DNA of 64,000 nucleotides from NCBI GenBank assembly GCA_041743505.1, contig JBGTMQ010000020.1, positions 17,099-81,098 on the forward strand. Reading direction: 5' to 3'. The notes beneath the pieces are model-generated. The model ran no database searches. It saw only the letters and a list, made by a program, of their open reading frames with translations, and was not told the origin of the DNA. The position numbers and the translations under genes were made by a program. Positions 1,008 through 47,363 of this stretch are shown one piece after another. This DNA comes from Candidatus Saccharimonadia bacterium. GTDB lineage: Bacteria; Patescibacteriota; Saccharimonadia; UBA4664. Numbering within the stretch: the first letter of the stretch is position 1; every line of letters begins with the position of its first letter.

Positions 1008-1220
1008 CAGCCATCGTTGCCGAGCTTTCCGCACACCTTGACATCGCAGGTATGAGAACGTACTCTCCCGAGGAAAGTACCACATCTAAAGACATAAATT
1101 AATGGCTTCCCATAAACATAATATGCACTAAGAAAATCATCGACTCTCCCTGGGAGAGTAGGCACTACATAGGTTCACGCACGAAGCCCTGGAAACTAAG
1201 ATCGGCTACAATACAAAAGA

Positions 1221-25143: not shown

Positions 25144-25614
25144 CTATGCACGTTTCTTTCTTCGGATCGTGCGCCGGATGGGGCCGGCCGCCGCAGCTGC
25201 TACGTCACGCCAGGCCTCAGGATTCTTAATCCTCAATGAGATTGCCGCCTGGTGAACGCCCTCACGGACACTAGCCAGTAGTTCGCTCCGTAGGGCCGCC
25301 TGGAGCACCCGGGTTAGGTAGCGCTGCTCTGTCTGGCCGTCCTTGGTGCGGTCAATACCCAGGGCGCCTCCCACCATACCGGCCAGCTGCCGGTCGGCTA
25401 TCTCCACCCGGCCATGCTGCGTCCGCCGCCGCCGTATAATCACCACCGCCAAAGCGATAACCAGGCCAACAATCCACCGCTCCGAATGAAGCGGCGAACC
25501 GGCCTGCAACATCCGCTGCCAGGTCGTCTCATCAATGCCAAAATAACCGGTCAGAGTTCGCCTGGTATCCTCTACAATGCCTTGCTCGTCATCATTCAGT
25601 CGGGACTCAGGCAT
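25144..25614 (-). CDS. hypothetical membrane-anchored protein
   Basis: 156 aa with a central TM segment and an Arg-rich C-terminus. Confidence 0.4.
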   Translation of the reverse strand: MPESRLNDDEQGIVEDTRRTLTGYFGIDETTWQRMLQAGSPLHSERWIVGLVIALAVVIIRRRRTQHGRVEIADRQLAGMVGGALGIDRTKDGQTEQRYLTRVLQAALRSELLASVREGVHQAAISLRIKNPEAWRDVAAAAAGPIRRTIRRKKRA

Positions 25615-25699
25615 ATCACTTCCTCTCAGATCCCGCCGTACTCAAGCGTTTGCTGTGAGCTAGATAGATTATACAGCCGGCACCTGAAACCTTTGCCTA

Positions 25700-25823
25700 G
25701 GTACTAGAATTTTTCTAATAGTTGCCAAAACAACGCAAAATCAAGCATAATAATAGCTCCATAAAGCCATTATACAGCCATCATGTAAGTGTACCTTTCC
25801 TGACTAGAAAAATTCTAGTACCC
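25700..25823. repeat. ~123-bp repeat element with palindromic inverted termini, copy 1
   Basis: Left end GGTACTAGAATTTTTCTAATAG and right end ACTAGAAAAATTCTAGTACC. The same family occurs at 29797-29918 and 40341-40463. Confidence 0.6.
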
Positions 25824-25883
25824 ACGGGCAGGGGATGGCGTACAGACCAAGAGTCACCGCAAACACCAGAAACCCCGGCAACA

Positions 25884-25913
25884 CTTGACATATTTCCGTT
25901 AAACGTGATATAA
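25884..25913 (+). promoter_or_regulatory. sigma70-like promoter (TTGACA-18-TATAAT)
   Basis: TTGACA at 25884 and TATAAT at 25908, upstream of the 25958 gene and its RBS GAGGAG. Confidence 0.45.
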
Positions 25914-25957
25914 TAGTAAGATCTGTTGATTGAAAACTCAGGTCAGAGGAGACTAGC

Positions 25958-26293
25958 ATGCTCTGCATTTGCGACCATCTTGCCAGCCTTGTCAACTACT
26001 CCGGCGCCAACTTGTCACGCCTATCCAACCAGGCCGCCGCGGCGGCCTGGTTGGATGAGTACAACGCTCTCGCCGGCGACCCGGAAATCCAAGGTGAGCC
26101 CCTCACCGTGGAAGATATGGGTGATCTTGACTGGTACGACCAGGACGGCTACCGCCTGGTGGCATACGTTCGAACCGAGTCCGGCAACCTCGTCCTCTAC
26201 CTGGACGATGACGGCCCCACTCACCGCATCATGTGCCGTCCTCTCCAGAGCACGGACCGGTGTCCGCCCGAACTCTTGCTGGCAATCATCTGA
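25958..26293 (+). CDS. hypothetical protein
   Basis: 111 aa with a good promoter and RBS. Confidence 0.45.
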   Translation: MLCICDHLASLVNYSGANLSRLSNQAAAAAWLDEYNALAGDPEIQGEPLTVEDMGDLDWYDQDGYRLVAYVRTESGNLVLYLDDDGPTHRIMCRPLQSTDRCPPELLLAII

Positions 26294-26403
26294 CCCTACA
26301 ACGATCAACAGATACTCCCGGGCTTTAGCTATTGCAGCTAGCCCGGGAGAATCTCGCAATTATCAAAACAGGCTCCATTTGGGAGTCTGTTTTTTTGTCT
26401 GCC

Positions 26404-26784
26404 CTAAATCTCGCCTGTCTTTTTAGGCAATTCCTGGACCGACCATTTATTCCCATCCGGATCGCTAAAATACACAAACCTGCCCCATGCCAAATCCTCG
26501 ATATCACTTACGTCAACCCCGCGGCTCGCCAAGTGTTCATGTGCCTTTTCGATGTCCGCCACCACCATCTGCACGCCCTCAAGCGAACCCGGCTTCATTT
26601 CCGTCAACCCGGTGCCAATATAAATCGAACAAGCCGAACCGGGCGGCGTCAGCTGCACAAAACGCAAATTTTCATTTACTTGCTGGTCGTGATCGGCCAC
26701 AAATCCCACCTTCTCTGTATAAAAAGCCTTAGCCCGGTCTACATCGCCTACCGGCACCGGTACAAGCTCAAGTTTCCAATCCAT
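26404..26784 (-). CDS. VOC (glyoxalase) family protein
   Basis: 126 aa with a glyoxalase-like fold signature (VGDVDRAKAFYTEKVGF...FSDPDGNKW). Confidence 0.75.
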   Translation of the reverse strand: MDWKLELVPVPVGDVDRAKAFYTEKVGFVADHDQQVNENLRFVQLTPPGSACSIYIGTGLTEMKPGSLEGVQMVVADIEKAHEHLASRGVDVSDIEDLAWGRFVYFSDPDGNKWSVQELPKKTGEI

Positions 26785-27044
26785 AAAACATCCTCCTCAG
26801 AGTCCTTTAATGATCCTTTTATTCATTATACGTCCACTCGGCCACAATATTTTGCGGTATTTTTAATGGCCGGCCCAGACGTATAATAAAAGCAACTTCT
26901 ACTAAGCCCACCACAAGAAGCACCTATGCACAAGCTCTCCGCCGGCGTCTCAAAAACATGGTAAAAATAACTTGACATAACACTAAATATCATGATATAA
27001 AGATACCACTGCCTACCAGGTTGTACCCAACGAAATGAGTCGCC

Positions 27045-27446
27045 ATGACCCAGCCCGACCCCGGCCTCCCGCCAGACGAGCAGGTTGTCCGGCAGCCAGA
27101 TCCGCTACTTCTTCGCAAGCTCATGGACCTCCTGGACTCGGAAACCGGCTCTTACAGCATCCTCTTCCACGAAGGTGGCGTCGATGGAGCCCCGCTGCAA
27201 TTCCCGTTCATTCGAGCCGGGAATGGCCGGTCATCCCCTAAGGGAGGTGTCCGGTTCGACATCGGTGATCCACTGCCCAGGCCGGACCTCGCGTTCCTGT
27301 ATCAAGCCAGGCACTCCATGCCCCCGCTCACAGGGGCAGGCCCGCTCACCGAGGCAGATTGGTTTGGTCCCATCACCCCGCCAGACCCAGCCCCGGAAAC
27401 CGGTTTCAACCAGGCCTTATATGAACAACTCTTGCATTTTGTTTGA
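27045..27446 (+). CDS. hypothetical protein (possibly the 5' part of a frameshifted gene)
   Basis: 133 aa. Overlaps the next ORF by 26 nt in a different frame. Confidence 0.35.
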   Translation: MTQPDPGLPPDEQVVRQPDPLLLRKLMDLLDSETGSYSILFHEGGVDGAPLQFPFIRAGNGRSSPKGGVRFDIGDPLPRPDLAFLYQARHSMPPLTGAGPLTEADWFGPITPPDPAPETGFNQALYEQLLHFV

Positions 27447-27789
27447 TGATGCCGGCCGCCTCATACCCCCGCTGTTCCCACCCGACGCCCAGGAAAGAGT
27501 GACTGTGGCCTCGTCTCCGTTTCCCACACCCGATGAGGTAGACGCCCGCTGGGCCGACCAGACCGGACCCGCGTACGACCAGTTCAAGTCTCTCGTCGAC
27601 AAGAAACTAAAGCAAGGGCCGGCTAGTCAAGGCGTTTATTCCGTGGACATCCCGCACAACGTCCCTCAGGATGTAGTGGCGCGGGTCAGAGCTGAACTGG
27701 CCCTCTCAGGCTGGGACACCACCCAAGGGTCCAGTGCCAAGAACGAGCCGTACATGGAGTTCTGGCGCAAGTCCCGCCCAATCACCTAG
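27421..27789 (+). CDS. hypothetical protein (possibly the 3' part of a frameshifted gene)
   Basis: The coding-looking part begins at MNNSCILF. The upstream part of the track ORF is out-of-frame-like (Ser/Arg-rich). Confidence 0.35.
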   Translation: MNNSCILFDDAGRLIPPLFPPDAQERVTVASSPFPTPDEVDARWADQTGPAYDQFKSLVDKKLKQGPASQGVYSVDIPHNVPQDVVARVRAELALSGWDTTQGSSAKNEPYMEFWRKSRPIT

Positions 27790-27910
27790 CGTACACGCTC
27801 CATCAACAGCCCCCGGCCCGCAAAGCCGGGGGCGAATTATGCGGTACACCCTAAACTCCTTCAGCAACAAAATTAGCGCATCACTCATAAGTAATGCGCT
27901 TTAGGTACTG

Positions 27911-28345
27911 CTACCACTCTCCACAGAGGCCTGCTTTCTGCAAACGTTGCTTGAGAGGGGCATAATCATTGTTTGTTGCAACGAGGTAAACCTCCTGGGT
28001 CGTGCGGCCATAGGCAGCATCGCACTTCAGCGCGCTAATGCGGTCACCGAGCCGGGCGTAGCGCGTTACTTGAAAGCTAAAACCGCCTCCACCGCGTGCC
28101 CGTTTTCTAGGCTGTTTCGCATCGACTGACTGGCTCCGCACACCGCTACCGTCCACCGTTGTAGTGACCGCATGCTTTTTATTAGTGCGGCCAATGCGGC
28201 GCCTGGGCTTTATAGCGCCCAGGCGGATCTGGGAAATCTCCGGCCATGGTTCAATGCTGCTCAAGAACCTCATCAAACCTTCGACCTGGGTTGAATGTGC
28301 ACCGACTAAGATCTTGCCCCGCCGATGCCTCATAGGGTGCGCCAT
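27911..28345 (-). CDS. basic hypothetical protein
   Basis: 144 aa, Arg/Lys-rich. Weak RBS. Confidence 0.3.
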   Translation of the reverse strand: MAHPMRHRRGKILVGAHSTQVEGLMRFLSSIEPWPEISQIRLGAIKPRRRIGRTNKKHAVTTTVDGSGVRSQSVDAKQPRKRARGGGGFSFQVTRYARLGDRISALKCDAAYGRTTQEVYLVATNNDYAPLKQRLQKAGLCGEW

Positions 28346-28558
28346 GTCGTACCTTTCGCAGGGGACTGGAAAGTATATTAAAGCATAAGATCAAGCGTAA
28401 CGCTACATCTTGTATAATATAGAGCCGCTCGCGAAAGCTCCTTGGGGCGACACCTTTGGCATGTTCGCTGACAAGTATGGCATAGAATGGTTGGTCAACA
28501 TCGCCGGTCAATAATCCTAATATTGTACTGATAATTTAGTCCTTGCCATAAATAAAGC

Positions 28559-28590
28559 ACCCCGCCGACCGTCAGCATCGGCAGGGTGCC
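28559..28590. repeat. REP-like hairpin (family of 2; other copy 37167-37198)
   Basis: ACCCCGCCGACC-gtcagca-TCGGCAGGGTG. A similar CCCCGCCGACC...ATCGGCAGGGCGGGG lies downstream of another minus-strand gene. Confidence 0.4.
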
Positions 28591-28625
28591 GGTCGTACGG
28601 TTAGCGGGGTCAGTTGTCCAATGTG

Positions 28626-29189
28626 TTATCTTGCCGAAGCAGAAATGACGGCCTCGAGGTACCACCGTGTGGCGAGCGTGGTGTACGGCACTACGTCCTC
28701 TGGGACTGCAGCACCAGTCTCGCGCCAGACCTCAGGCTGCACCGTATATGTGACCGCGTGAGCTGCTTGCCTGGCCTCTGCCGAATTCGGACCGTGCTGA
28801 CGCAGGGCCTCGTCGTAGCGGACCAGAGCCTCGTGCATCCGGCGATACGTATTGATCTCACTGTCGCCGATGTTTCGTGTGGCGGTTTTTGGGTACCTCT
28901 TGTCCCAAGCCATGGGGTGTGGGTGGGTGACTGGCCGGTTTCTGAAGGTCTCCAGACCTGCGACCAAGGCTCCAAAGGCCTGCACACGGCGCCTAAACCG
29001 GCCGGTCTCTCTGTGATGATCGGCTGCCCGGTCAAGGACGAATTCCATGTTGCTGGGCCAGCCGTCGAATTCCCATCGGAGCCCGGCGCCGTTGATCTCG
29101 TACATGTATGCATTCAACGCGCGCTGAGCCCGGCCCACATCAGCAACGCTGAAGACGCCCGCCGGTGTGATCTCGTTGGTGCTACTCAT
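28626..29189 (-). CDS. hypothetical protein
   Basis: 187 aa with GGAG upstream of the ATG. The antisense track ORF 28614..29213 was judged spurious. Confidence 0.45.
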   Translation of the reverse strand: MSSTNEITPAGVFSVADVGRAQRALNAYMYEINGAGLRWEFDGWPSNMEFVLDRAADHHRETGRFRRRVQAFGALVAGLETFRNRPVTHPHPMAWDKRYPKTATRNIGDSEINTYRRMHEALVRYDEALRQHGPNSAEARQAAHAVTYTVQPEVWRETGAAVPEDVVPYTTLATRWYLEAVISASAR

Positions 29190-29271
29190 CTCAACTCCAG
29201 TCTGTCGGGTTGAACAGTCGAGTCAATTATAACATATAATGTAAACAAAAGCAATAGCAGCCATGCCGGCA

Positions 29272-29727
29272 TTATTTCCTAAACCGTTCAGAGCTAATAA
29301 GATCTAGCCACAAAAATTCGTTACCCCGAGCAAAACCGGCTGCCTCGTAGGTGTGTATAGCCGGCAAATCCTCCGGAGACGTTAACACCGACATAAACTC
29401 ATAACCCATGTCATTGACTTTCCCAATGGCGGCTTTTACTAATGCCGTAGCAATGCCTTGTTTGCGCATGTCTGGCCTGACATAAATATTCTCAATCAGC
29501 GCTTTGCTCAGCGGCCGGTTGCAGTTCACGATAATAAACCCAACGATAGCTCCGTCAGGCTGTACCGCAACGAGCATTATAACTGCTTCGTTGTTCACGC
29601 TTGCCCGCAAGATATCTTCTGGCCAAAAAGTGACAATTAGGTCACTTGTGTCAAACTCTCCTACACGTTCGCCCAGCACGTGCATGGTCTTAACATCTTC
29701 TAATACAGCTTCCCTTATGATTGCCAC
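29272..29727 (-). CDS. GNAT family N-acetyltransferase
   Basis: Acetyl-CoA binding motif RKQGIATALVKAAI. Confidence 0.75.
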   Translation of the reverse strand: MAIIREAVLEDVKTMHVLGERVGEFDTSDLIVTFWPEDILRASVNNEAVIMLVAVQPDGAIVGFIIVNCNRPLSKALIENIYVRPDMRKQGIATALVKAAIGKVNDMGYEFMSVLTSPEDLPAIHTYEAAGFARGNEFLWLDLISSERFRK

Positions 29728-29796
29728 CTTCTTACTTCACTCCAAAAATATCAAATCAATTTTAGCATCCGGCAAGTTCCCGATCTGTATATAGAC

Positions 29797-29918
29797 ATAC
29801 TAGAATTTTTCTAATCGGCCGGCCATAATGGCCACGCCACCGAGATAATGGCTCCACTAAGCCACTGCTACATAACAAATTAACCCATTTTGGCAACTAC
29901 TAGATAAATTCTAGTACC
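29797..29918. repeat. ~123-bp repeat element with palindromic inverted termini, copy 2
   Basis: Left end ATACTAGAATTTTTCTAATCGG and right end ACTACTAGATAAATTCTAGTACC. The interior shares ATAAT(A/G)GCTCCA..AAGCCA with copy 1. Confidence 0.6.
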
Positions 29919-30011
29919 TTACCGATATGGGTTGCCATAAGCTGTCAGCCAGGCCATATTGTTGCTTTCTTGTCCATTCTCAAGTACTATTCAAAAAACA
30001 ATAAGGACAAT

Positions 30012-30746
30012 ATGGAAGCTGCAAACTCTACGCAATTAAGGCCTTTTGGCGAACTGCTTAAGGCCGCATTCGATTCATACAAAAAGAATTTTAAAACGGT
30101 TGCTGCTCTCTCTGCCGTTGCTGTCGCTCCATGGCTGGTATTCTGGCTCGGCACACCCGACAATCAGGCTGACGACCTCAGCGGGCTAACGTTCTTGACC
30201 TCTATAGCGCTGCTCGTCTATATCGTGGCCTCAATCATAGTCACTATCGCTCTCTACTACCTCGCCGACGATAAGCATCCGGATAAGAGCGTTTCCGGCC
30301 TCCTCAAGCTCAGTCTGTCCAAGTTCATACCGATACTCTGGATATCAATACTAGTTGGGTTGGCAACAATCGGTGGTCTCATACTGCTGATAATCCCAGG
30401 CATAATTTTTGCGATCTGGTTCAGCCTTACCACTCAAGCAGTACTATTCGAGGATAAACGCGGCGTTCAGGCGCTGAAACAGAGTCGGGAATATGTCCGT
30501 GGCCGCTGGTGGGCCGTCTTTGGACGTATCATTCTACTCATCCTGGTCATGATCTTAGCCGCCATAATCGTCGCCGCCATAGCCAGCATCCTATCGGCCA
30601 TCGTCGGACCCCGCGCCGATGCTCTCAACGACCTCGTTAGCATATTTATACTGACACCCATCGTTACCATGTTCAGCTACCACCTCTACCGCTCAGCCGC
30701 CGACACTCATACCGTCGCCGCAAAAGAGCCGGCACCGGCATCGTAA
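30012..30746 (+). CDS. polytopic membrane protein (DUF975/YciC-like?)
   Basis: RBS AAGGA then ATG at 30012. About 6 TM helices. Confidence 0.55.
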   Translation: MEAANSTQLRPFGELLKAAFDSYKKNFKTVAALSAVAVAPWLVFWLGTPDNQADDLSGLTFLTSIALLVYIVASIIVTIALYYLADDKHPDKSVSGLLKLSLSKFIPILWISILVGLATIGGLILLIIPGIIFAIWFSLTTQAVLFEDKRGVQALKQSREYVRGRWWAVFGRIILLILVMILAAIIVAAIASILSAIVGPRADALNDLVSIFILTPIVTMFSYHLYRSAADTHTVAAKEPAPAS

Positions 30747-30772
30747 TTCCGCAATAGCACGGAAGTCTACTC

Positions 30773-30799
30773 AAAAGGAGGCCAATTAGCCTCCTTTTT
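30773..30799. terminator. rho-independent terminator
   Basis: AAAAGGAGGCC-aatta-GCCTCCTTTTT. A near-identical copy lies at 31617-31642. Confidence 0.7.
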
Positions 30800-30907
30800 C
30801 TGGTGAACTATTCTATTGACAAATGAATAGATACTTTACTTTTTACAGTAAAGATACTATACTTCTTAAAGTATCAATAACTAAAGTACTTTTCAAGGAG
30901 TAAATAA

Positions 30908-31573
30908 ATGAATCCAAATCGAAAAGCAGCTGGTTTAGCCGGCATCTTAACTGGTCTGTTGCTGGCCGGAGAATTTTTCTTTTTTATGTTAAGCAACTAC
31001 TCGCCTGCCGCATACAATAATGCGAATGAGGCACTCGCAATTCTTACAGATAATGTAAACATTTTGCGGGCTGCGGTACTGTTCGGTATCGCAGGGGCAA
31101 TCGTAAGAATAGTATACGTCGCAGGATTAGCCGCTGTTTTGTATCCAAAAGCACCATCGCAAGCTGTTGCTGTAAAATACTTTGGTATATTGGGCGGTAT
31201 CGGTCATGGACTAGTAGCTCTGACCTTTTTTAGCGGCCTGCCAGTATTGGTTACGCTTGCCGCCCAAGACGCTATGCTGGCGCAACAGGTGTGGCATAGC
31301 TTCACTATTATAACCAGCGGCTTTCAAAGTCTCGGTAACACCCTGCTAGGCCTCTTCCTGCTTGTATCCGGTTTTGTTATCGTTCGCCATCGAGTACTAT
31401 CCTCAGGCCTTGGTTGGGTCGGTATAGCCGGAGGTGTAGCGACACTTATTGGGGTGTTCAGCGCTCAGACCGCGTTTTCCGGTATCGGCTTCATGGCATT
31501 CATGACTTCATTGCCACTTGCCGTAATCTTCAACATTTGGTCGGGTATAAAATTGTACAAACTAGCCGATTGA
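30908..31573 (+). CDS. membrane protein (low-GC cassette)
   Basis: 221 aa with about 6 TM helices. The cassette is AT-rich relative to its flanks and has the RBS AAGGAG. Confidence 0.55.
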   Translation: MNPNRKAAGLAGILTGLLLAGEFFFFMLSNYSPAAYNNANEALAILTDNVNILRAAVLFGIAGAIVRIVYVAGLAAVLYPKAPSQAVAVKYFGILGGIGHGLVALTFFSGLPVLVTLAAQDAMLAQQVWHSFTIITSGFQSLGNTLLGLFLLVSGFVIVRHRVLSSGLGWVGIAGGVATLIGVFSAQTAFSGIGFMAFMTSLPLAVIFNIWSGIKLYKLAD

Positions 31574-31616
31574 TACCTTGTTTAAAACTACTTCGTCAAA
31601 CATGTATTGAACTCAA

Positions 31617-31642
31617 AAGGAGGCCAGTTGGCCTCCTTTTGA
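31617..31642. terminator. rho-independent terminator (near-identical to 30773-30799)
   Basis: AAAAGGAGGCC-agtt-GGCCTCCTTTT. Confidence 0.7.
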
Positions 31643-31664
31643 GTAGATCGGTTAGTTGGTTATT

Positions 31665-34481: not shown

Positions 34482-34673
34482 GGTCTCCTAATTAAACATA
34501 AGCACTATACCGACTCAAGTCTAAGCATTATAGAGACGTTTTGTACATAAGATAGCTTTTGATTAGATACGATCACAAAAATTTTTGGAAGTTTGCCTAA
34601 TGCGCACCTATAAGCCGGAAACAGGCAGCAGAAACAGCTGTGCAACTAGTGGGTAGCCTTCAGGCTCATTACC

Positions 34674-35573
34674 TTACTTCAAAGTCTTGTCAAAGTGCTC
34701 GGCCGAAATATCAACCGAACGTGTAACTTGTGGCTCCTGATCGTAAAAATCAGTCTGCTCGCCCTCAGTCCAAGTGATGTTCTTTTTACCCGGCACAAAG
34801 TCATAAAAAGCCTTTACGCCGTCAACCGTCGCTGCCGCCTCGCTGTGAACGATCTGCAATGGAACCGCCATGTCTCGTCCATAACGGACCGCGTCAAATG
34901 TCAGCCAGCCAAGCCAACCCATAACTGCAAACCGGTTGGTCCATTCCGAAATTCCACCCCGGTCATGATCCAAGTAAAAATCCAACCTCATCGGCATGGC
35001 GGCTTGCGGGTCCGTTTCGCTTAGCGCCGGGACATAGTCAATCTCTCCCGTTGCTTCGTATTTTATCCGGGCGGCCCGGCCTCGCGCCATCCGTTCCGCC
35101 ACTCCTTCATCGCCACCATACATGGCCCGGATAATCTCGCCGTTGTGCAGCCAAGGCGCTACAAACGCCAGCGACTTTACACGCCCATCAGCAATGCTAT
35201 TCGCCGCCGCATAACCCGCGCTAGCGCAAATACCTAGAATGCCCAGCTTATCGCCGTCAATTTCTGGCCGGCTTTCCAAAAACGTAACGGCATTATGAAT
35301 GTCCTGAATCTTTAAGTCTGGCGATTCAAATTGCCGGGGCTCACCATCCGACGCGCCAAAGTTACGAAAATCAAACGACAATGCCGCCAAACCTTTCTCG
35401 GCCAGCCGCTTGGCATACCGGTCCGCCATTTGCTCCTTCACGCTTGTCCATGTTCCGACCACCACAATCGCTGCCAAACCGCTAGATTCGGCGGCCGGCA
35501 AGTATAAATTGCCGCGCAAGGTCATGCCTTCACTATCAAACGTGACAGCTTTAGCGTGTATCTGGTGCGTCAT
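34674..35573 (-). CDS. alpha/beta hydrolase (dienelactone hydrolase / acyl-peptidase-like)
   Basis: Nucleophile elbow GICASAGYAA and a downstream Asp/His region. Confidence 0.65.
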   Translation of the reverse strand: MTHQIHAKAVTFDSEGMTLRGNLYLPAAESSGLAAIVVVGTWTSVKEQMADRYAKRLAEKGLAALSFDFRNFGASDGEPRQFESPDLKIQDIHNAVTFLESRPEIDGDKLGILGICASAGYAAANSIADGRVKSLAFVAPWLHNGEIIRAMYGGDEGVAERMARGRAARIKYEATGEIDYVPALSETDPQAAMPMRLDFYLDHDRGGISEWTNRFAVMGWLGWLTFDAVRYGRDMAVPLQIVHSEAAATVDGVKAFYDFVPGKKNITWTEGEQTDFYDQEPQVTRSVDISAEHFDKTLK

Positions 35574-36055
35574 TCACGACCCGCTGACTTGCTCAGCTCA
35601 ACGCTCAGACTAAGGGTTGTCGCGTCTACTTGGGCGCCCACGAGCTGGCCCTGCACCCCCCGGTATTTGTCGGTGCCACCGGTAATGGATAGGGTAAAGT
35701 CAGACTCGCTGGAATCTATCACCCCTTGGACTGCAATATCGCCGTCAGGTAACTGGAGCGTGGCCGTACAATAAAGCACTGTAGCAGATTCACCTACTTG
35801 CACACACAAACCCCGGCCATTGCCCACCTGGGTATTGCCGGTTTGGTCAAACAACCGGTTATCGCCAGCAAACTGGTCACCGGCACTCGGGCCCGGAGCA
35901 CCTAGGTCAATTGATGTGAGGTTTGTGCGCTCCACTAGTTTGATAGTATGGCCTCGCTCAGTCCTAGGCGTTTGCTTGGCCATTACTGTTGGTACTAATG
36001 CCAGTGACGCCGCTACGGCCGCGCCAATTCCAATAACTAGTATTTTCTTCTGCAT
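35570..36055 (-). CDS. secreted hypothetical protein (beta-rich)
   Basis: Signal peptide. Overlaps the hydrolase gene by 4 nt, which suggests an operon. Confidence 0.5.
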   Translation of the reverse strand: MQKKILVIGIGAAVAASLALVPTVMAKQTPRTERGHTIKLVERTNLTSIDLGAPGPSAGDQFAGDNRLFDQTGNTQVGNGRGLCVQVGESATVLYCTATLQLPDGDIAVQGVIDSSESDFTLSITGGTDKYRGVQGQLVGAQVDATTLSLSVELSKSAGRE

Positions 36056-36341
36056 TCATACACCTCATCAAATTAGTCTACGCACAGGATACTAATCGGA
36101 TTGACCTAATGGTGCATTGTGCAGATTGCCTATCATGGTAGTCAAAATGATAGTGAAATAAAACAATTGTTATGACTAGCCCGGCTAGCTTACAGTAGGT
36201 CGCGTAACGATTAGGAGAAAAACATGAATCCAGTAACCTGGTTCAGCAAGCCTTCGGCTGGAGAATGCTGCCTGAGACAAAAGAAAAAGCCCCGCTGGCT
36301 ACGAGATTCACTCTCGTGCTAGCGGGGTCATGCGACGTAAC

Positions 36342-36947
36342 TTATGTGGCCCAGAGGGCGAGCGCTTGCTCGTGCAAGTTAGCCCGAGCCTGTTCAATGG
36401 CCCATGCGGAAAATTCTGCGGGTGTCATGAGTTGCAGGCCGAGCGCCTCCGCCTCCTCCTGGGTGTGGTAGAAGTCGGAGTATTTAGCTGCCCGAATATA
36501 CTGCAGCTCGCCTCCCGGCTGCCGAACGATCCAGTCGCCCGGATGCACGATGTCGCTGTGTTCCCGGACCACGTCCCCGCCTTGAGCCGACGGTATGAGC
36601 GTCACAATCCGGCAGGCCTGGTCAGCCTGGTAGGCCTTGGGCAGGGTCACCTTAACCCAGTAGCCCGGACCAACCTTCACATGCATATTTTCCCATTGGG
36701 CTCTGGCTGAACCCCGGCGTACGTCGCCGTCGCTGTTAAGCAGCCCATAGAAGCTACCATAGAAAACCTGCAGGCCGCCGGCCAGAGGCTTGATGATCGT
36801 CGGTAGCTCCTGGCCATCCTCTGTCAGAGGGATGGTTATAAGTACGGCCTGCTTCGGGGCCGGCTTCGGAAAAATGGTGCGAGCCTGGCCCTCATCGAAG
36901 GTAACCTCCGGAAGATTTTCCGGAGGGACATCAGCATGGACTACCAC
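36342..36947 (-). CDS. hypothetical protein
   Basis: 201 aa. A rho-independent terminator (hairpin plus U-tract on the minus strand) lies at 36290-36335. Confidence 0.5.
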   Translation of the reverse strand: MVVHADVPPENLPEVTFDEGQARTIFPKPAPKQAVLITIPLTEDGQELPTIIKPLAGGLQVFYGSFYGLLNSDGDVRRGSARAQWENMHVKVGPGYWVKVTLPKAYQADQACRIVTLIPSAQGGDVVREHSDIVHPGDWIVRQPGGELQYIRAAKYSDFYHTQEEAEALGLQLMTPAEFSAWAIEQARANLHEQALALWAT

Positions 36948-37166
36948 AACGCCGTCACCTCTTTCTGGGATGTACGAAGGTCATATATTTTGAACGTTAC
37001 TACTCGGACGAATTCTGGCGTCACGATGACGAAGTATAGCATATTTTATCCTATATGTCAAAGAAACTCCCTTGAATGCAGGAATCGTCAAATGCCTCGT
37101 CGGCGGATGGTTGCGCCGCCACCCAGCGGTAAATACAAGGCCGGCCCAATATCACACGAAAACGCC

Positions 37167-37198
37167 CCGCCGACCACAAGGATCGGCAGGGCGGGGTA
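37167..37198. repeat. REP-like hairpin (second copy)
   Basis: GCCCCGCCGACC-acaag-GATCGGCAGGGCGGGG. Confidence 0.4.
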
Positions 37199-37202
37199 GC
37201 TG

Positions 37203-37652
37203 TCAGCCCACCAAGCAGTAGGCAAACTTCGGCCTATGACCAAGAAGATATTGCTCAGCCTCGGCCGGCGTGGGCGTCAATTTGGCATCGTTAACATCTA
37301 CTTCGCCGTGGCCTCTAGCAACTTCATCCAGCTCGTAAACCTCGATGTCCCGGCCCTGACGCTTGCCGGCGATATTGTCTTCGCCTAGCTTGCGCTCCAG
37401 CTCGACCGCACAGCCCCTAACAGCCACGATCGCCTCGATAGTGGTCTCGGTCGTATTACCTGAGGTCTCGTCTTCCAGTCTGGGGTTGCCGCCGCCGGGC
37501 GCCAGGGTGAAGCCACTGGCCACAACGTCGGCCCGGAAATCCGCAAGCTGGTTCTGGCGGTCTTTATGATTCCACCAGAATAACGCAGAAATGAGGCCGG
37601 CACCTAATACAACGGCAAGGATGACAGCGACAGTCTTCAGAGCTCCACGCAT
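37203..37652 (-). CDS. membrane-anchored hypothetical protein
   Basis: N-terminal TM anchor; 149 aa. Confidence 0.45.
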   Translation of the reverse strand: MRGALKTVAVILAVVLGAGLISALFWWNHKDRQNQLADFRADVVASGFTLAPGGGNPRLEDETSGNTTETTIEAIVAVRGCAVELERKLGEDNIAGKRQGRDIEVYELDEVARGHGEVDVNDAKLTPTPAEAEQYLLGHRPKFAYCLVG

Positions 37653-37749
37653 ATCCTGCCCCTTTCAAGAGGGTCCGGTGATGAACTGATATATTAAAAC
37701 ATATTATTGAACACAGTGCAATAGTAATGTCTGAAGTGAATGCCCCCGT

Positions 37750-38205
37750 CTAGACGACGGGGGCATCGGGCTCCTTCGAAGGAGACTTAGCTTCGATGGG
37801 CTTGGCCTGGGACGGGAATACGAGCTTCCCGGTAACCGACAGGTTAATGACGCCTAGGCCGGCGACGCTCACAAGGTAAGCCACCATATAAGGCATACCC
37901 ATCATGATCAACACCGCAAAGGCTGCCTGGTTCAGTACCGTACTGCCGGATTTCAGCAGCTGGAATCTATACCATTGCTGCCATAGTGATGTGGTGTGTG
38001 CACCCTTCCAGGTAAACCTCCGGTGAAGGTAGAAGTGAAGCTGGGTCGTAAAGCCTACGCGCGTCAGATTGGCCAGGATCGGGAACATGCCCAGTCCGCT
38101 CACCAGCACCCATAGGACGACAATATTGATTCCTGTGATAAAGAAACCCACGCCCACAAATTTGAGGCGACGCCTCGTGCGCTCCGTCGGTGGTTGCCTG
38201 ACCAT
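37750..38205 (-). CDS. GtrA family protein (lipid-linked sugar translocation)
   Basis: 4 TM helices. The N-terminal KFVGVGFFITGINIVVLWVL matches the GtrA signature. Confidence 0.65.
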   Translation of the reverse strand: MVRQPPTERTRRRLKFVGVGFFITGINIVVLWVLVSGLGMFPILANLTRVGFTTQLHFYLHRRFTWKGAHTTSLWQQWYRFQLLKSGSTVLNQAAFAVLIMMGMPYMVAYLVSVAGLGVINLSVTGKLVFPSQAKPIEAKSPSKEPDAPVV

Positions 38206-38364
38206 TATGCCCCCTGCGGTTGGCTTGTCCGGGGTTGAAGCTCTATAATATGTTATAATATTATGATATATAAGTCAATATTTAACTTGGGACTAACAAA
38301 CTTTACACTTTACTAATATTATATTATAGTGAAGCAGCCGCAACCTCGTTGAAAGGAACAGAAG

Positions 38365-38631
38365 ATGGCCACTCGTCAGGAGCTACGCGATTGTCTGTGC
38401 GAGCTTATCTCGAAGGTAGCCGAGGAACGTCAGACTGAGCTTGCGCTCAGAAGAGAAGTATCAGTGCCGTTGAGCGGGATGCTTGCCCAGGCAAGGCTCA
38501 CCAACCTAGAGCTCAGTGAGCTCCTAGAGGAAATCAGTGACGCAGAGGTGTTGCAGGACCTGGTTGCCGAGTCCGGGTGGAGCGGCAGCCGTGACGAGGG
38601 CGAGCAGGCTCTCATCCTGAAGAAAGCGTGA
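38365..38631 (+). CDS. hypothetical acidic protein
   Basis: 88 aa, followed by a strong terminator. Confidence 0.35.
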   Translation: MATRQELRDCLCELISKVAEERQTELALRREVSVPLSGMLAQARLTNLELSELLEEISDAEVLQDLVAESGWSGSRDEGEQALILKKA

Positions 38632-38697
38632 CACAAGTATACTAAGCCCTGGATGGTAGTCTCAGGGAACCTAACATTACATAGCAGAGGTGAAAGT

Positions 38698-38733
38698 CAA
38701 AAAAGGTTCCAGAATAAATTCTGGAACCTTTTT
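38698..38733. terminator. rho-independent terminator (perfect hairpin with A/T flanks)
   Basis: AAAAAGGTTCCAGAA-taaa-TTCTGGAACCTTTTTC. Confidence 0.7.
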
Positions 38734-38807
38734 CATCTGAAATTTTGAAAATAAATCCTGGTGAGCTCTAGGGGAATCGAAACCGGTTATTAGGACGAGT
38801 GTTCAGA

Positions 38808-38960
38808 TTATTCAATCTTCAGGGTAAGTTTCCCAAGGAAGTGAGTCTCTAGCATCCGGTGCGCGTCTGCGACCTGCTGGAGCGGAAACGTAAGTGTTTC
38901 TAAGCCACCAAAGTGATCGATAGCCATTGCTTGCATAGTGTGTGGTACTGTCTGCTTCAT
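38808..38960 (-). pseudogene. remnant of a Zn-dependent quinone oxidoreductase (MDR superfamily) with an in-frame internal deletion
   Basis: The 50-aa ORF is MKQTVPHTMQAMAIDHFGGLETLTF|PLQQVADAHRMLETHFLGKLTLKIE. Its first half matches the conserved N-terminus of such enzymes (MKA.VI..FGGPEVL) and its second half their extreme C-terminus (AHRLLE...GKIVLK). A strong SD GAGGAGG lies upstream. Confidence 0.55.
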
Positions 38961-39021
38961 AGTGTCCTCCTCTTATACTAATACATCCCGCGACCTTTAG
39001 TCAGCTAGGCGTGCTTATTTA

Positions 39022-39053
39022 ATGTTAACACGTTAATATTAATGTGTTAACAT
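39022..39053. promoter_or_regulatory. 32-bp near-perfect palindrome (putative MarR autoregulatory operator)
   Basis: ATGTTAACACGTTAATATTAATGTGTTAACAT ends at the MarR start codon. It is palindromic except at the paired positions 11 and 22. Confidence 0.55.
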
Positions 39054-39488
39054 GTGTGTATGGAAACTTCGACCGCCTACGCAGTGCACAAGTTAGCCGT
39101 TGAGATGGACCGCGCGGCTGATAGACTCCTGCAGGAGCGTCTAGGCATTTCGTACGGACGTTTTTACTTCTTGCTCGTTCTGGTGGAAAGCGGACAAGTG
39201 CCCCAGCATAGCATTGCCACGACAATGGGTTATAGTGCTCCGGCGATCAGTAACATGGCCGGCGAACTTGTAAAAGACGGGCTTGTCGAAGCAATATCAG
39301 ATCCGGCCCATGGGCGTCGCCGCCTGATAACGATTACTCCAAAAGGCAACAGACTCCTTAGCCAAAGCCTGGAATTACTTGATGAATGCTTTTCAGAATT
39401 GACAACATTAGCCGGCATTGACGAGGTACAGTACAAAGCGGACACAGAACAATTAATCATGGCACTCGTGCGTAAACGAAGGAGGTAA
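39054..39488 (+). CDS. MarR family transcriptional regulator
   Basis: Winged-helix MarR core (SIATTMGYSAPAISNMAGELVKDGLVEAISDPAHGRRRLITITPKG). GTG start at 39054 or ATG at 39060. Confidence 0.8.
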   Translation: MCMETSTAYAVHKLAVEMDRAADRLLQERLGISYGRFYFLLVLVESGQVPQHSIATTMGYSAPAISNMAGELVKDGLVEAISDPAHGRRRLITITPKGNRLLSQSLELLDECFSELTTLAGIDEVQYKADTEQLIMALVRKRRR

Positions 39489-39489
39489 C

Positions 39490-40013
39490 ATGAAACATAA
39501 ACGGGTAGTTTTAGGGGTTGCGGTTGTAATGACCGGTTTGAGTGCGGGTTTGTTTTATGCGTATGCCATATCTGTGAATCCCGCCTTCAGACATCTTTCG
39601 GATGAGACCTATATCGCTGCTATGCAGGCTATTGATAGAGACATACAAAATCCGATCTTTTTTATAAGTTTTTTGGCCCGGCTTTACTACTACCGCTAGC
39701 AGCCTATCTGTATAGAAATGGGTCGGTGTATCACCGGTTTAAGCTTTTGTTAGTGGCCGCGACACTCTATATTATTGGGGCTTTCGGTACGACAGCCGTA
39801 GTAAATGTACCCCTCAATGAGGCACTCGCAAAAGTCCCGATAGAAACATCAAGCCCGAGCCAACTTGCAGCAGCCCGGATAAAATATGCCGAACCTTGGA
39901 ATAACTGGCATATTGTGCGGACAATTGCCGCCACGTCAGCGTTCGCGGTAGCGGTCGCAGCCTGCCTAGTCCCAGAGAATAAGCGTAAAGATAAAAGTCC
40001 AGCAATTGACTAA
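39490..40013 (+). pseudogene. DUF1772 (anthrone oxygenase-like) membrane protein gene split by a frameshift in a T6 homopolymer
   Basis: ORF 39490..39699 ends FLARLYYYR*. Shifting +1 in the TTTTTT run at 39671-39676 reads F(F)GPALLLPLAAYLYRNGSVYHRFKLLL and continues into ORF 39726..40013. Together these reconstruct a 4-TM DUF1772-type protein of about 165 aa. Confidence 0.55.
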
Positions 40014-40091
40014 AATATGACGATGTTGGTCATTTTGTTTTGGGGTTGCTATAGCTGTTTCACATCGGGGCGTGCTGTTAAGAATCTCTTT

Positions 40092-40166
40092 TGGTGATCC
40101 CACGGGGAATCGAACCCCGGTTGCCGGGATGAAAACCCGGTGTCCTAACCGCTAGACGATGGGACC
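40092..40166 (-). tRNA. tRNA-Glu (anticodon UUC)
   Basis: The reverse complement GGTCCCATCGTCTAGCGGTTAGGACACCGGGTTTTCATCCCGGCAACCGGGGTTCGATTCCCCGTGGGATCACCA folds as a cloverleaf. It has a 7-bp acceptor stem, a D-arm, a 5-bp anticodon stem with loop TTTTCAT, a GGGGTTCGATTCCCC T-arm, and an encoded CCA. Confidence 0.85.
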
Positions 40167-40340
40167 AAAGTGTATGGGTGTGGGCCGTGCCAACTGGCTG
40201 GCAAGAAGCCGCTTCGTTAATTCAACACATGTTACATTAACATTTTCGGGCGGTTCCTTCAATAAGAATATGCCACGCAGTTCAGTTGTGGGCAAGCTGA
40301 TAAGGCAGAATCCCAATCCATCCCTCGTCCCACTTAAGCA

Positions 40341-40463
40341 GGTACTAGATTTCTTCTAGTCTCGCAGCCGCCGCAACGAAGCGGCTGTATTAATGGCTTC
40401 GCATAGGAAACATTACGCAATGATCTACGCTATATTGTCAACTACTAGAAAAATTCTAGTACC
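40341..40463. repeat. ~123-bp repeat element with palindromic inverted termini, copy 3
   Basis: Left end GGTACTAGATTTCTTCTAGTC and right end ACTACTAGAAAAATTCTAGTACC. Confidence 0.6.
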
Positions 40464-43144: not shown

Positions 43145-44286
43145 ACATCCTCTGGCTAACCTGGAAGGACCGCCGGAATCCTCTTGCTGGCGGGGCCGAA
43201 GTGGTCAATGAAGAGCTGGCCAAGCGCCTGGCCTCAGGCGGCCACAAAGTCACCTTCCTGGTCGCAGGATTTCCCGGCAGCCAGCCCCAAGAAGACCGCG
43301 ACGGCTTCCATATCATTCGCATCTCCAGCCGCTATATGGTCTATTTAGCTGCCTTCAGCTACTTCCGTCGCCACCAAACCGAACTCAACCCTGACCTAGT
43401 CATCGACGAGTGCAACACCATGCCGTTCTTTTCGGCTTGGTACACGCACAAACCAACCATTATGTTCTTCCACCAACTTTGCCGCATTACCTGGTTTTAT
43501 CAATTTCCCCAACCCCTCTCCACCATCGGCTGGCTGGCCGAACCCGTTTACCTTCGCCTGCTCAAACGCAGCCCGGTTATCACCATCTCAAACTCCGCCA
43601 AACAAGACCTTATCCGCCACGGCTTCAAGGCCGCCGACATCCACATCATCTCCGAAGGCTCCCACCTCACACCCGTCAAAGACCCTGCCGGTGTCGTCAA
43701 ATTTGCCACCCCCACCATCATCAGCCTCGGCTCCATTCGTCCCGTCAAACGCACCCTCCACCAGCTCCAAGCCTTCGAACACGCCAAAGCTACCATGCCT
43801 GACCTCCGCTTCATCATTGGCGGCGACTCCTCGGGCAGCTACGGCAGCCAATTCCTCGAAGCCATCAAGCGTAGCCCCTACGCCGCCGATATTGACTACC
43901 GCGGCCATGTCAGCGACGCCGAAAAACTCGAACTCATGCAGCGTGCCCACGCCATCGTCGTCACCAGCGTCAAAGAAGGCTGGGGACTCATCGTCACCGA
44001 AGCCAACTCGCAGGGCACCCCGGCCGTCGTCTACGACGTCGACGGCCTCCGCGATAGCGTCCGCGACGGCCAAACCGGCCTAATAACGCCAGCCAATACA
44101 CCCGAAGCGCTAGGAGACAAAATCATTGAACTCCTCCGCGACCCCGCCCGCTACCAAACCCTCCGCACGCAAGCCTGGCAATGGAGCAAAACCATCACCT
44201 TCGATCAAAGCTACGCCGACTTCACCAAAGTCCTCAATCTGACTACTACCCCTAACGAATCCCGACAAGAAGTTCCTACTCCGTGA
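43141..44286 (+). CDS. family 4 glycosyltransferase (GT-B fold)
   Basis: GT4 EX7E region EGWGLIVTEANSQGTPAVVYDVDGL. GTGA overlap with the preceding GT2. Confidence 0.8.
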   Translation: MNILWLTWKDRRNPLAGGAEVVNEELAKRLASGGHKVTFLVAGFPGSQPQEDRDGFHIIRISSRYMVYLAAFSYFRRHQTELNPDLVIDECNTMPFFSAWYTHKPTIMFFHQLCRITWFYQFPQPLSTIGWLAEPVYLRLLKRSPVITISNSAKQDLIRHGFKAADIHIISEGSHLTPVKDPAGVVKFATPTIISLGSIRPVKRTLHQLQAFEHAKATMPDLRFIIGGDSSGSYGSQFLEAIKRSPYAADIDYRGHVSDAEKLELMQRAHAIVVTSVKEGWGLIVTEANSQGTPAVVYDVDGLRDSVRDGQTGLITPANTPEALGDKIIELLRDPARYQTLRTQAWQWSKTITFDQSYADFTKVLNLTTTPNESRQEVPTP

Positions 44287-44650
44287 CAGAACTGGAATGC
44301 TGGCTCCGCAAAGTACTCTTAAATGCTAAATAAGCACCCAGGCCGGACAAAACAACCACTAGAAAGTAAACCGGGGACAGTAGCTCCGGCTGGAATCCAG
44401 TTTCCGCTATGGCTAAGCCATTAACAATCACGCTTGGTGCTATTTGTATAACGAGAATACCACCCAGTATTCGCAAAGCAACTCTTGAAGGTCTCACCAA
44501 CACAGTCATAGCCAGAGCGATCGCTATTATGGCTATGACTACAGCAATAAGCCTGTAAAAATTTAGATCAAAGCCAGGTATGTACACGTGTAAGAAATAA
44601 ATTGACACCCCAATCGCCAAAAATGCCGCGGAACGAGATAAATTACTCAT
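44276..44650 (-). CDS. small membrane protein
   Basis: 124 aa with 4 TM helices; low-GC region. Confidence 0.4.
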   Translation of the reverse strand: MSNLSRSAAFLAIGVSIYFLHVYIPGFDLNFYRLIAVVIAIIAIALAMTVLVRPSRVALRILGGILVIQIAPSVIVNGLAIAETGFQPELLSPVYFLVVVLSGLGAYLAFKSTLRSQHSSSVTE

Positions 44651-44742
44651 CCTTAGTTTAAGAATTGCTTAAGCATAAACATAATTTAACATTTTACTGA
44701 AGCAAAGAATATCAGCAAACCGCTTCTACTAACGATATTTAC

Positions 44743-45045: not shown

Positions 45046-45101
45046 AATTTATCCCTACAAAAGCTAAGTCTAGGAGAGCAAGATGCACTCTCCGGGACTA
45101 T

Positions 45102-45461: not shown

Positions 45462-45470
45462 TGATTTCAA

Positions 45471-45785: not shown

Positions 45786-45801
45786 CTGCCCTTACTGTTC
45801 A

Positions 45802-46600: not shown

Positions 46601-46737
46601 GGACATAGCATTGCGTTATCCTTACTGCTCCTGCAAGTTAATTATATAACGCCTCTATACGCAGTACTTTGGACACTAACTTGGCTGCTTGCTGGGCTCA
46701 TCGTATGCATTCGAGATTCGGCCTGGGCTTCAATGCT

Positions 46738-46995: not shown

Positions 46996-47007
46996 AGTCG
47001 TGTATTA

Positions 47008-47356: not shown

Positions 47357-47363
47357 ATTGTAA

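Follow-up and report, generated by a model that had tools for sequence, protein, structure and literature searches.

The gal repressosome, in which GalR occupies the gal OE and OI sites and HU is located at the apex, is one example of a looped operator pair. The nagE-nagB region is repressed in a comparable manner by NagC, through a DNA loop between paired palindromic operators that lie ~90–115 bp apart at divergent/overlapping promoters (PMC4288165). Paired palindromes are also a hallmark of REPINs, doublets made up of REP (repetitive extragenic palindromic) sequences forming hairpins, which in Pseudomonas fluorescens SBW25 are mobilised by RAYT transposases (PMC3116915, PMC3337134) and display preferred fixed spacings of 71 and 110 bp (PMC3337134, PMC3116915). 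Here we describe a family of non-coding cassettes of ~125 bp, each bounded, when intact, by two 21-bp near-palindromes, in a 64-kb stretch of a Candidatus Saccharimonadia genome (GenBank assembly GCA_041743505.1, contig JBGTMQ010000020.1, positions 17,099 to 81,098; hereafter the window). The family consists of three intact copies (length 123–125 bp, with no credible open reading frame (ORF)) and one decayed copy. An earlier note on this DNA had placed three elements at 25700–25823, 29797–29918 and 40341–40463, and this is where the intact copies are found. Judged from the sequence, our tentatively preferred interpretation is that the cassette belongs to a once MITE-like spread (a MITE being a miniature inverted-repeat transposable element) and may now act at the DNA level as a paired-operator, DNA-looping control module.

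The resemblance to looped operator pairs is in the overall format. NagC and GalR each act through two palindromic sites ~90–115 bp apart that serve one dimeric regulator, the sites flank promoters (divergent in the nag region), and repression relies on cooperation via a small loop with an architectural or promoter element at its centre. The cassettes differ from these systems in that the whole unit is homologous between loci, is present in both orientations and has exactly one length, whereas the spacers of NagC and GalR at different targets are unrelated and varied in length. In addition, the regulator is known for NagC and GalR targets, and no matching one was found for the cassette in the ~77 kb of the genome that was covered.

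The palindromes have the form GTACTAGAA-TTT-TTCTAGTAC, and the six near-identical sites are present solely as three pairs. When the window was scanned with the core of the site, ACTAGAWWWWTTCTAGT, allowing ≤3 mismatches, 12 matches were obtained, corresponding to six sites counted on both strands. Dinucleotide-preserving shuffles gave an expectation of 0.82 matches and 0/100 shuffles reached 12, showing that the paired palindromes are far beyond chance. A looser scan of the same 64 kb (≤2 mismatches over 12 arm positions) added two matches that look like chance occurrences. Each site is a 21-bp near-palindrome comprising 9-bp arms and a 3-bp A/T centre. Read from outside to inside the six sites conform to (G)GTACTAGAATTTTTCTAGT, with TACTAGA and TCTA invariant in all six; the seven changes that separate them comprise two in the outermost GG of one site, one inner-arm G-to-A substitution at each of two sites, and three in the A/T centre. 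The starts of the paired sites (25703/25803, 29799/29899 and 40344/40444) are separated by exactly 100 bp in all three copies.

The end of the cassette that adjoins a conserved block, TAGTTG(C/A)CAA, is referred to as the A end and the opposite end as the B end. Copy 1 (25699..25823) displays B-to-A polarity on the minus strand, so its A end is leftmost. Its A-end palindrome, GGTACTAGAATTTTTCTAATAG, occupies 25700..25721 and is followed by the A-proximal block AGTTGCCAAAA (25720..25730, plus strand), which contains a −35-like TTGCCA pointing into the cassette; the B-end palindrome GACTAGAAAAATTCTAGTACC is at 25802..25822. Copies 2 (29796..29918) and 3 (40341..40463) have B-to-A polarity on the plus strand. 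In copy 2 the B-end palindrome, (C)ATACTAGAATTTTTCTAATCG, is at 29797..29817, and the A-proximal block ATTTTGGCAACT is followed by the A-end palindrome CTACTAGATAAATTCTAGTACC within 29887..29918. The equivalent features of copy 3 are the B-end palindrome GGTACTAGATTTCTTCTAGTC at 40341..40361 and, within 40432..40463, the A-proximal block ATATTGTCAACT followed by the A-end palindrome CTACTAGAAAAATTCTAGTACC. As a palindrome present twice is a direct and an inverted repeat at once, the asymmetric parts of the sites were used to test inversion. The left site has TTT as its 3-nt centre and the right site AAA, with GG on the outer side. Consistent with these asymmetries, the left and right ends of copy 1 match at 16/17 positions as an inverted repeat and at 13/17 as a direct repeat. 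The terminal arms are complementary at 18/18 positions in copy 1 (25700–25717 against 25805–25822), over 20 nt at 90% in copy 3 and over 16 nt at 94% in copy 2. The description of the two ends as inverted repeats in the earlier note is thus borne out, the asymmetric centre confirming that the inversion is genuine.

The interior, of 83 nt, is polar, and copy 1 lies in the opposite orientation to copies 2 and 3. In the matching orientation ungapped interior identity is 38 of 83 (copy 1 plus strand and copy 2 minus strand), 40 of 83 (copy 1 plus and copy 3 minus) and 43 of 83 (copies 2 and 3, both plus), equivalent to 46–52% and exceeding shuffled sequences at p<5e-5; the values in the opposite orientation are 25, 17 and 13 of 83. 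Gapped alignment of the interiors yielded z-scores of 4.7–5.7 in the matching and 1.5–2.2 in the opposite orientation. Similarity therefore runs through the interior, in conflict with the idea that it might be confined to the short TAGAA..TTCTA core, which had been named as the condition under which the elements would cease to be discrete. Conservation is, nevertheless, uneven, at ~95% for the ends compared with ~50% for the interiors. The invariant interior blocks in the oriented alignment are the A-proximal block and AGCCATTA, which is TAATGGCT when read from B to A. This core is located at 25765..25772 on the minus strand in copy 1, where it is preceded on that strand by TATAAT, at 29846..29853 on the plus strand in copy 2, where it is preceded by GATAAT, and at 40391..40398 on the plus strand in copy 3, where it lies inside ATTAATGGCTTCGCATAGGAAACAT. 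In all three copies TAATGGCT starts 39 nt from the centre of the B site and 61 nt from the centre of the A site. By comparison with the other two copies, copy 1 is one base short after GCCATTA and has one additional base nearer the B end, indicating that the 100-bp distance has been kept by compensating indels. A small dyad, TAATRGCT-N6-AGCCAYT, is positioned at the exact centre of the cassette; it is weak in copy 3 and clear in the other two. The same-strand motif ATAAT(A/G)GCTCCA..AAGCCA that had been reported as common to copies 1 and 2 is real; it reflects this central dyad.

A fourth, degenerate relative (e4; 1049..1162, plus strand) is positioned 42 bp past the ogt stop codon in a co-directional, rather than divergent, spacer. 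When the whole window was searched for pairs of similar palindromes 60–160 bp apart, only two families were returned, the three cassettes and a pair at 1060–1080 and 1142–1162 whose members are 81 bp apart. The palindromes of e4, GTACTCTCCCGAGGAAAGTAC and GACTCTCCCTGGGAGAGTAGG, are GC-richer than, and different from, those of the intact copies, although they have the same outer frame, GTACT...AGTA; they may be replacement sites, terminator-like hairpins after ogt, or chance. The palindromes of the type seen in copies 1–3 are lost in e4. By contrast, its core, AATTAATGGCTTCCCATAAACATAATATGC, aligns locally with the core of copy 3 (ATTAATGGCTTCGCATAGGAAACAT) at z=7.6, with 0/1000 shuffles as good, and a further alignment, of its left part to copy 1's B end, has z=4.4, the matching segments including GGTA..AGAA and AGGAAAG(G)TAC. 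A remnant of the outer arm, GGTATGAGAAC, is at a homologous distance from the core (51 nt compared with 49–50 nt). A profile built from copies 1–3 alone does not recover e4 (E=8.8), so that the relationship is supported by its core and left arm. The decayed copy is ~24 kb from the intact cassettes, in a non-promoter position. It argues that the family once dispersed as a unit and that the palindromes decay where they are presumably unused, both having been lost from e4 with retention of the core, and are kept only in the three copies at divergent promoters. A core profile searched against all of the available DNA of the same genome, which comprises the window and ~13.5 kb beyond it (~77 kb of a genome of roughly 1 Mb), accepted only the four known copies. 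A weak, possible fifth relative at 44343–44470 (minus strand; profile match 44412–44436) was not accepted, with E=1.8; this segment contains TAATGGCT with, 40 nt upstream, the centre of a palindrome, GAATAC-N6-GTATTC, and, on the downstream side, a half-site, TTTCTAGT.

All three intact cassettes sit between divergently transcribed genes, a configuration found in ~11 of the ~50 intergenic spacers on a rough gene map of the window. The earlier note had recognized this arrangement at two of the three; at copy 3 the left-hand partner is the minus-strand tRNA-Glu gene (40092–40166), positioned 175 bp from the B end. To the right of copy 3, 121 bp from the A end, is the ATG (40584, plus strand) of a Wzx flippase, the first gene of a glycosyltransferase cluster. 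Copy 2 is flanked on the left by a GNAT gene (29272–29727, minus strand), whose start is 70 bp from the B end, and on the right by a gene encoding a DUF7847/UPF0259-type membrane protein (plus strand), whose ATG at 30012 is 94 bp from the A end. Copy 1 has on its left the gene for a 156-residue single-pass membrane protein (25144–25614, minus strand), the start codon of which (25614) is 86 bp from the A end, and on its right an ORF at 25958–26293 (plus strand). Thus, the A end is directed toward a membrane/envelope gene in all three copies, at distances of 86, 94 and 121 bp, noting that the genes were grouped in this way post hoc. A perfect promoter, TTGACA-18-TATAAT, is located at 25885–25914 and belongs to the plus-strand gene on the right of copy 1. 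As this promoter lies outside the cassette, the proposal that each copy serves the plus-strand gene downstream of it is unsupported for copy 1, and assignment of this copy to the 25958 gene is doubtful. The motif GGCTGTATAAT is present twice on the minus strand in this region, at 25769–25784 in the core of copy 1 and at 25668–25683 just beyond the A end; in both motifs TATAAT starts 37–38 nt from a palindrome centre, an arrangement seen at copy 1 only. The two motifs may represent a tandem, −35-less promoter pair directed toward gene 25614.

The wider window is ordinary chromosome, encoding Ogt, a sortase, Ku/LigD, a two-component kinase, a C25 peptidase and the glycosyltransferase cluster. 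No recombinase, transposase or RAYT domain was detected in any ORF of the window, in agreement with the earlier note as regards transposases, or elsewhere in the ~77 kb of the genome that was covered. The small ORFs beside the cassettes contain no DNA-binding domain, and the sole regulator gene nearby encodes a MarR protein (39054–39488). A 32-bp palindrome at 39022–39053, consisting of ATGTTAACACGTTAAT and ATTAATGTGTTAACAT, abuts the start of this gene and is unrelated to the GTACTAGAA site; it is probably the autoregulatory operator of the MarR gene. Because it is this different palindrome that adjoins the gene, and no GTACTAGAA site is present there, MarR was set aside as unlikely to be the cassette-binding protein. 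Next to MarR, the ORFs at 39490–39699 and 39726–40013 match the N- and C-terminal halves, respectively, of the NCBIfam family ChrI (chryseobasin maturation helper), and constitute a split or frameshifted ChrI gene. A genomic island at the tRNA-Glu gene was considered and rejected, as the window contains no repeat of the tRNA 3′ end and no match to a phage family.

The cassette has not been found in any other lineage. The ~13.5 kb of same-genome DNA beyond the window contains no further site. Searches with the pattern ACTAGAWWWWTTCTAGTAC returned 4 matches in IMG/VR, 18 in GTDB (185,579 species genomes) and 35 in JGI metagenomes, all of them single sites in unrelated taxa with no partner ~100 bp away. 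A looser two-site pattern gave 18 unrelated matches in IMG/VR. The best extended match was rejected as chance, since it falls at an ORF's 3′ end, on a contig that is AT-rich. BLAST searches of copy 1 against plasmids and phages produced only noise. The histidine kinase encoded in the window has its best non-self homologues in Candidatus Saccharimonadales, the closest being 50% identical, and the loci of relatives reached through anchor genes (histidine kinase at ≤50% identity, C25 peptidase at 62–71%) display no synteny, site or paired palindromes. As far as can be seen, therefore, the element is specific to its host lineage, the host being a Saccharimonadales metagenome-assembled genome (candidate phyla radiation (CPR)/Patescibacteria) without close database relatives. 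The literature searched on the site, and on inversions in Saccharibacteria, contained nothing relevant. The sequence family is new, whereas the kind of object is already known under any interpretation, be it an operator pair, an inverton or a REPIN/MITE-like repeat.

Logan contigs from two runs (SRR28170470 and SRR28170471) cover all three loci and are 99.94–100% identical to the window. They are consensus assemblies that run unbroken across the cassettes, with a single orientation per locus that is the same as in the window. These runs derive from the same population and, consequently, do not constitute an independent test. No alternative orientation or empty site was found in other assemblies, the two Logan runs alone carrying the loci. 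A perfect 34-bp palindrome with no spacer, comprising ATCCAACCAGGCCGCCG and CGGCGGCCTGGTTGGAT, is located at 26023–26056, inside ORF 25958–26293 and 200 bp to the right of copy 1. Both Logan contigs over copy 1 stop exactly at this palindrome (~26052), which probably reflects a k-mer assembly break.

The paired-operator model proposed above would operate as follows. One dimeric DNA-binding protein would bind each 21-bp palindrome, contacting the two 9-bp GTACTAGAA arms on either side of the 3-bp A/T centre. The two dimers, exactly 100 bp apart, would act cooperatively, probably bridged across a small DNA loop that encloses the conserved core, which comprises TAATGGCT and the −10-like hexamer. 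The module would control three divergent promoter regions, and chiefly the envelope gene at the A end of each, namely 25614 (minus strand), 30012 and the Wzx/glycosyltransferase cluster at 40584. Dispersal of the family as a unit, in the manner of a MITE, would have occurred earlier. We infer the protein binding, the looping and the choice of promoter from features that are observed directly in the DNA: the sites, their spacing, the polarity, the conservation and the genomic context.

Several of these features favour the paired-operator model. The near-perfect 21-bp palindrome with an A/T centre is the format of a site for a dimeric protein. Neutral decay of MITE copies would erode the ends and the interior alike and would alter the length; the conserved ends, the exact length and the fixed register and polarity of the interior therefore point to in-place selection acting on a pair of protein-binding sites and on their geometry. 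The core is held in fixed register (39/61 bp) in the 5′ regions of divergent genes in all three copies, although its identity as a promoter is weak. The homologous interiors in both orientations and the decayed copy elsewhere argue, in turn, that the unit was once copied to new places.

Other observations weigh against the model. The homologous interiors, the two orientations and the decayed copy require a dispersal mechanism, which a purely operator-based model does not supply. The window contains no candidate for the cognate protein that would bind the 21-bp palindrome. At 10.5 bp per turn the 100-bp spacing corresponds to 9.5 turns, which is out of phase for looping; for looping in vivo, however, the helical repeat is roughly 11.1 bp per turn, and the resulting value of about 9.0 turns favours the model. 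The promoter content of the cassette is also incomplete. Read from B to A, a −10-like hexamer (TATAAT, GATAAT and ATTAAT in copies 1, 2 and 3, respectively) directly precedes GGCT but has no −35 element. Read from A to B, a good −35 element (TTGCCA, TTGCCA and TTGACA) abuts the A palindrome, but a good −10 is present in copy 1 alone. Promoter-like sequences are found outside the cassette at several neighbouring genes. Furthermore, no other genome searched carries the site, and hence there is no phylogenetic footprint, and the basis of the model is three intact copies from a single population. Of the two interpretations put forward in the earlier note, the dual-operator proposal is thus supported by the signs of selection on the two sites and their spacing, and is weakened by the failure to find a binding protein and by the different palindrome of MarR.

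The other interpretation in the earlier note, a small mobile element, is possible but rather unlikely as the full account. The cassette would then be a selfish or inert non-autonomous element, MITE- or REPIN-like, whose ends are recognition sites or hairpins for a transposase encoded elsewhere; it would have no host function, and any influence on the genes beside it would be incidental. Genuine terminal inverted repeats of 16–20 nt, 90–100% complementary, on a non-coding unit of 123–125 bp are within the definition of a MITE (repeats of ~15–30 bp, non-coding length of 70–300 bp) in both size and terminal repeats, and this part of the proposal stands, together with the homology over the whole length, the copies in both orientations and the decayed copy 24 kb away in a non-promoter spacer. 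When the whole cassette is treated as single-stranded DNA the ends pair into a stem of 19–20 bp (z −3.7 to −6.2). The target-site duplications for which a search had been advised are, however, absent at all three copies, where the left and right flanks are CCTA and CACG, GACA and TTAC, and AGCA and CCAT, respectively, an observation with which families that generate no duplication remain compatible. The lack of a transposase, RAYT or recombinase domain in any window ORF, the small number of copies within ~77 kb (three intact and one decayed) and the failure to find a relative in IMG/VR, GTDB genomes, JGI metagenomes, plasmids or phages, leaving no source insertion sequence, also disfavour a mobile element. 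Finally, the contrast between ends at ~95% and interiors at ~50% identity and a length held by compensating indels are unlike neutral decay, and the intact copies are all in divergent promoter regions.

Within the mobile-element interpretation the architecture fits that of REPINs strikingly well. Both consist of two short, inverted, imperfect palindromes at a characteristic fixed spacing, in which an asymmetric centre marks the orientation (TT/AA in REPINs, TTT/AAA in the cassette), the ends are highly conserved and the spacer poorly so, and the ends pair in single-stranded DNA. The spacer of a REPIN is, however, built to form a hairpin, with compensatory changes, and this is a defining feature of these elements; the interiors of the cassettes do not fold, being no more stable alone than shuffled sequences (z 0.06 to −1.9). 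REPINs are present in tens to hundreds of copies distributed randomly over extragenic space, in contrast to the few and, when intact, divergently flanked cassettes, which also contain a conserved polar core in their interior. In REPINs each palindrome carries at one of its ends a tag, GTAG (or CGTC), that is unpaired (PMC3733652). In the cassettes this tag is inconsistent, as only two palindromes out of six, those at the A ends of copies 2 and 3, are flanked by GTAG, and copy 1 has ATAG at its A end and the B ends have GTC.

The Correia/NEMIS elements of Neisseria are likewise MITE-sized, being 69–157 bp long and ending in inverted repeats of ~26 bp, and have a conserved core with, in the long forms, a central IHF site; they are found 5′ of genes, where they can supply promoters and alter regulation, demonstrating that an element of this size can carry both promoters and a central protein site (PMC2649163). 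In contrast to the cassettes, they exceed 100 copies per genome, insert at TA with duplication, comprise several length classes and have ends that are not palindromes (PMC2649163). The cassettes have no sequence similarity to these elements and show neither duplication nor variation in length. A further comparison is with integron attC sites and the Vibrio VCR repeats, which are ~57–141 bp long with R″/R′ consensus sequences of RYYYAAC and GTTRRRY. The length is similar, each end is a simple site of two inverted boxes, the ends are mutually inverted and the centre is variable. The cassettes, however, lack the RYYYAAC/GTTRRRY ends, and no integrase is present. They are also spaced 4.1 and 10.5 kb apart, with one copy inverted and genes on both strands, and do not form an array in the same orientation with a copy after each ORF.

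That the cassettes are invertible promoters is unlikely. According to this explanation a recombinase encoded elsewhere flips the 83-bp interior, such that the polar core drives either the left or the right gene, leading to phase variation of envelope/polysaccharide genes. In Escherichia coli fimS, the Bacteroides fragilis Mpi promoters and the PhaseFinder invertons, inverted repeats flank a short polar promoter segment upstream of surface genes, and one repeat sequence can be common to several loci (PMC11868660). The cassettes resemble these systems in several respects. Their ends are true inverted repeats around a polar interior, one repeat recurs at several loci, as in the B. fragilis Mpi system (cited in PMC11868660), and all copies are between divergent genes, with the Wzx/glycosyltransferase locus, a classic phase-variable function, among the targets. 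Promoter-like hexamers are present inside, as half-promoters only, −35-like on one strand and −10-like on the other. On the chromosome copy 1 points the opposite way to the other two, and a fixed short length would matter in so tight a loop. Each end can, in addition, be read as 7-7-7 (GTACTAG-AATTTTT-CTAGTAC), the layout of tyrosine-recombinase core sites such as that of lambda.

Unlike the described invertible promoters, the cassettes have no recombinase within ~77 kb and no second orientation was observed; the uniform orientation at every locus in the two Logan runs and the window is weak evidence, coming as it does from consensus assemblies of the same population. The A end facing the membrane-protein gene in all three copies is what would be expected for a fixed orientation. 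The repeat centres are mismatched in two of the three copies. The central 7 bp of the two ends are identical in copy 1 only, and differ in copy 2 (AATTTTT and AATTTAT; 1 mismatch) and copy 3 (ATTTCTT and AATTTTT; 2 mismatches), and heterology in the central region normally blocks exchange by tyrosine recombinases. The odd-length symmetric centre is ill-suited to serine invertases, which use a 2-bp crossover. The segment of 83 bp between the repeats is shorter than the classical invertible segments, which are ~170–314 bp, and as a loop it is at the lower physical limit known for Cre/loxP. A more specific claim is slightly less likely again: with a single recombinase in common, the cassettes would serve as ultra-short (100-bp) promoter switches that invert between the two genes of each divergent pair, and would thereby phase-vary two membrane-protein genes and the Wzx/glycosyltransferase polysaccharide locus of a Saccharimonadales epibiont. 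If true, it would be the first promoter-inversion system described in the CPR/Patescibacteria radiation, according to the literature searched, and the segments would be among the smallest invertible ones known.

It is very unlikely that the element acts at the RNA level, as a transcribed cassette in which two AU-rich hairpins and a single-stranded core serve as a 5′ leader, a processing/stability signal or a small RNA. In favour of this role, a 7–9 bp hairpin is possible at each end, and the ends can pair mutually. Were transcription to start at the core, the 5′ leader of the gene on the A side would contain the A-end hairpin; the core is also what is best preserved in the decayed copy e4, and Correia elements, when transcribed, are processed by RNase III (PMC2649163). 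Against it, the hairpins are A/T-rich and weak, an RNA role needs neither perfect DNA dyads nor an exact spacing of 100 bp, and three sequences provide no usable covariation. Searches of Rfam at the gathering and E<1 thresholds returned nothing but hairpin noise (the miRNA-like matches being generic), and no terminator-like sites are present in the cassettes. These results, in combination with the absence of an interior fold, make a structured RNA or a long foldback unlikely. Foldback of the whole element was rejected, each interior matching its own reverse complement at 12–16 of 83 positions. Several further candidates were also rejected. A conserved small peptide translated from the ATG of TAATGGCT would be encoded by ORFs of 9, 11, 34 and 9 codons that lack a ribosome-binding site and share no consistent sequence. 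For a sigma-54 promoter in TTGGCAAC the −12 element is missing. Restriction-site avoidance is not indicated, as CTAG and GTAC are not under-represented.

Several other features of the window were recorded. An AT-rich stretch with few long ORFs, at 44083–49577, contains direct repeats at 44083–44287/48021–48225 (97%), 44734–44969/48535–48770 (92%) and 47880–48029/49428–49577 (91%), and a 68-nt unit at 45034, 47291 and 48835 that ends in a GC hairpin of 12–13 bp (AGTCCCGGrGAGC...GCTCyCCGGGACT). A 33-nt inverted repeat of 94% identity (30766–30798/31615–31647) flanks the DUF4386 gene at 30908–31573; each arm is itself a hairpin (AAAAGGAGGCCAnTTGGCCTCCTTTT), and the arms look like bidirectional terminators. 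The adjoining genes for Ku and a three-domain LigD (phosphoesterase, ligase and primase-polymerase), at 14340–17602, represent a complete non-homologous end-joining pair in a small Saccharimonadales genome. In and around the 856-bp divergent spacer upstream of Ku are direct repeats at 12640–12677/14254–14291 (38 nt, 92%) and 13522–13561/13937–13976 (40 nt, 80%). The ORF at 59426–63205, which has no Pfam match, encodes 1259 residues in the Logan assembly compared with 1075 in the NCBI record, a discrepancy in start site or annotation.

In CPR bacteria such as the Saccharimonadales, genomes are tiny, recognisable regulators are few and hardly any cis-regulatory DNA has been mapped. A sharply defined cassette that is repeated before envelope and polysaccharide genes provides a testable handle on the control of the cell surface in a host-attached epibiont. 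If a regulator binds the sites, as the paired-operator model would predict, the three loci would form a small envelope regulon served by a portable promoter-operator module. If the interior flips, the cassettes would reveal phase variation in a lineage where none is known, and if they are mobile elements they would represent a new REPIN-like or MITE-like family whose ends are under selection in place.

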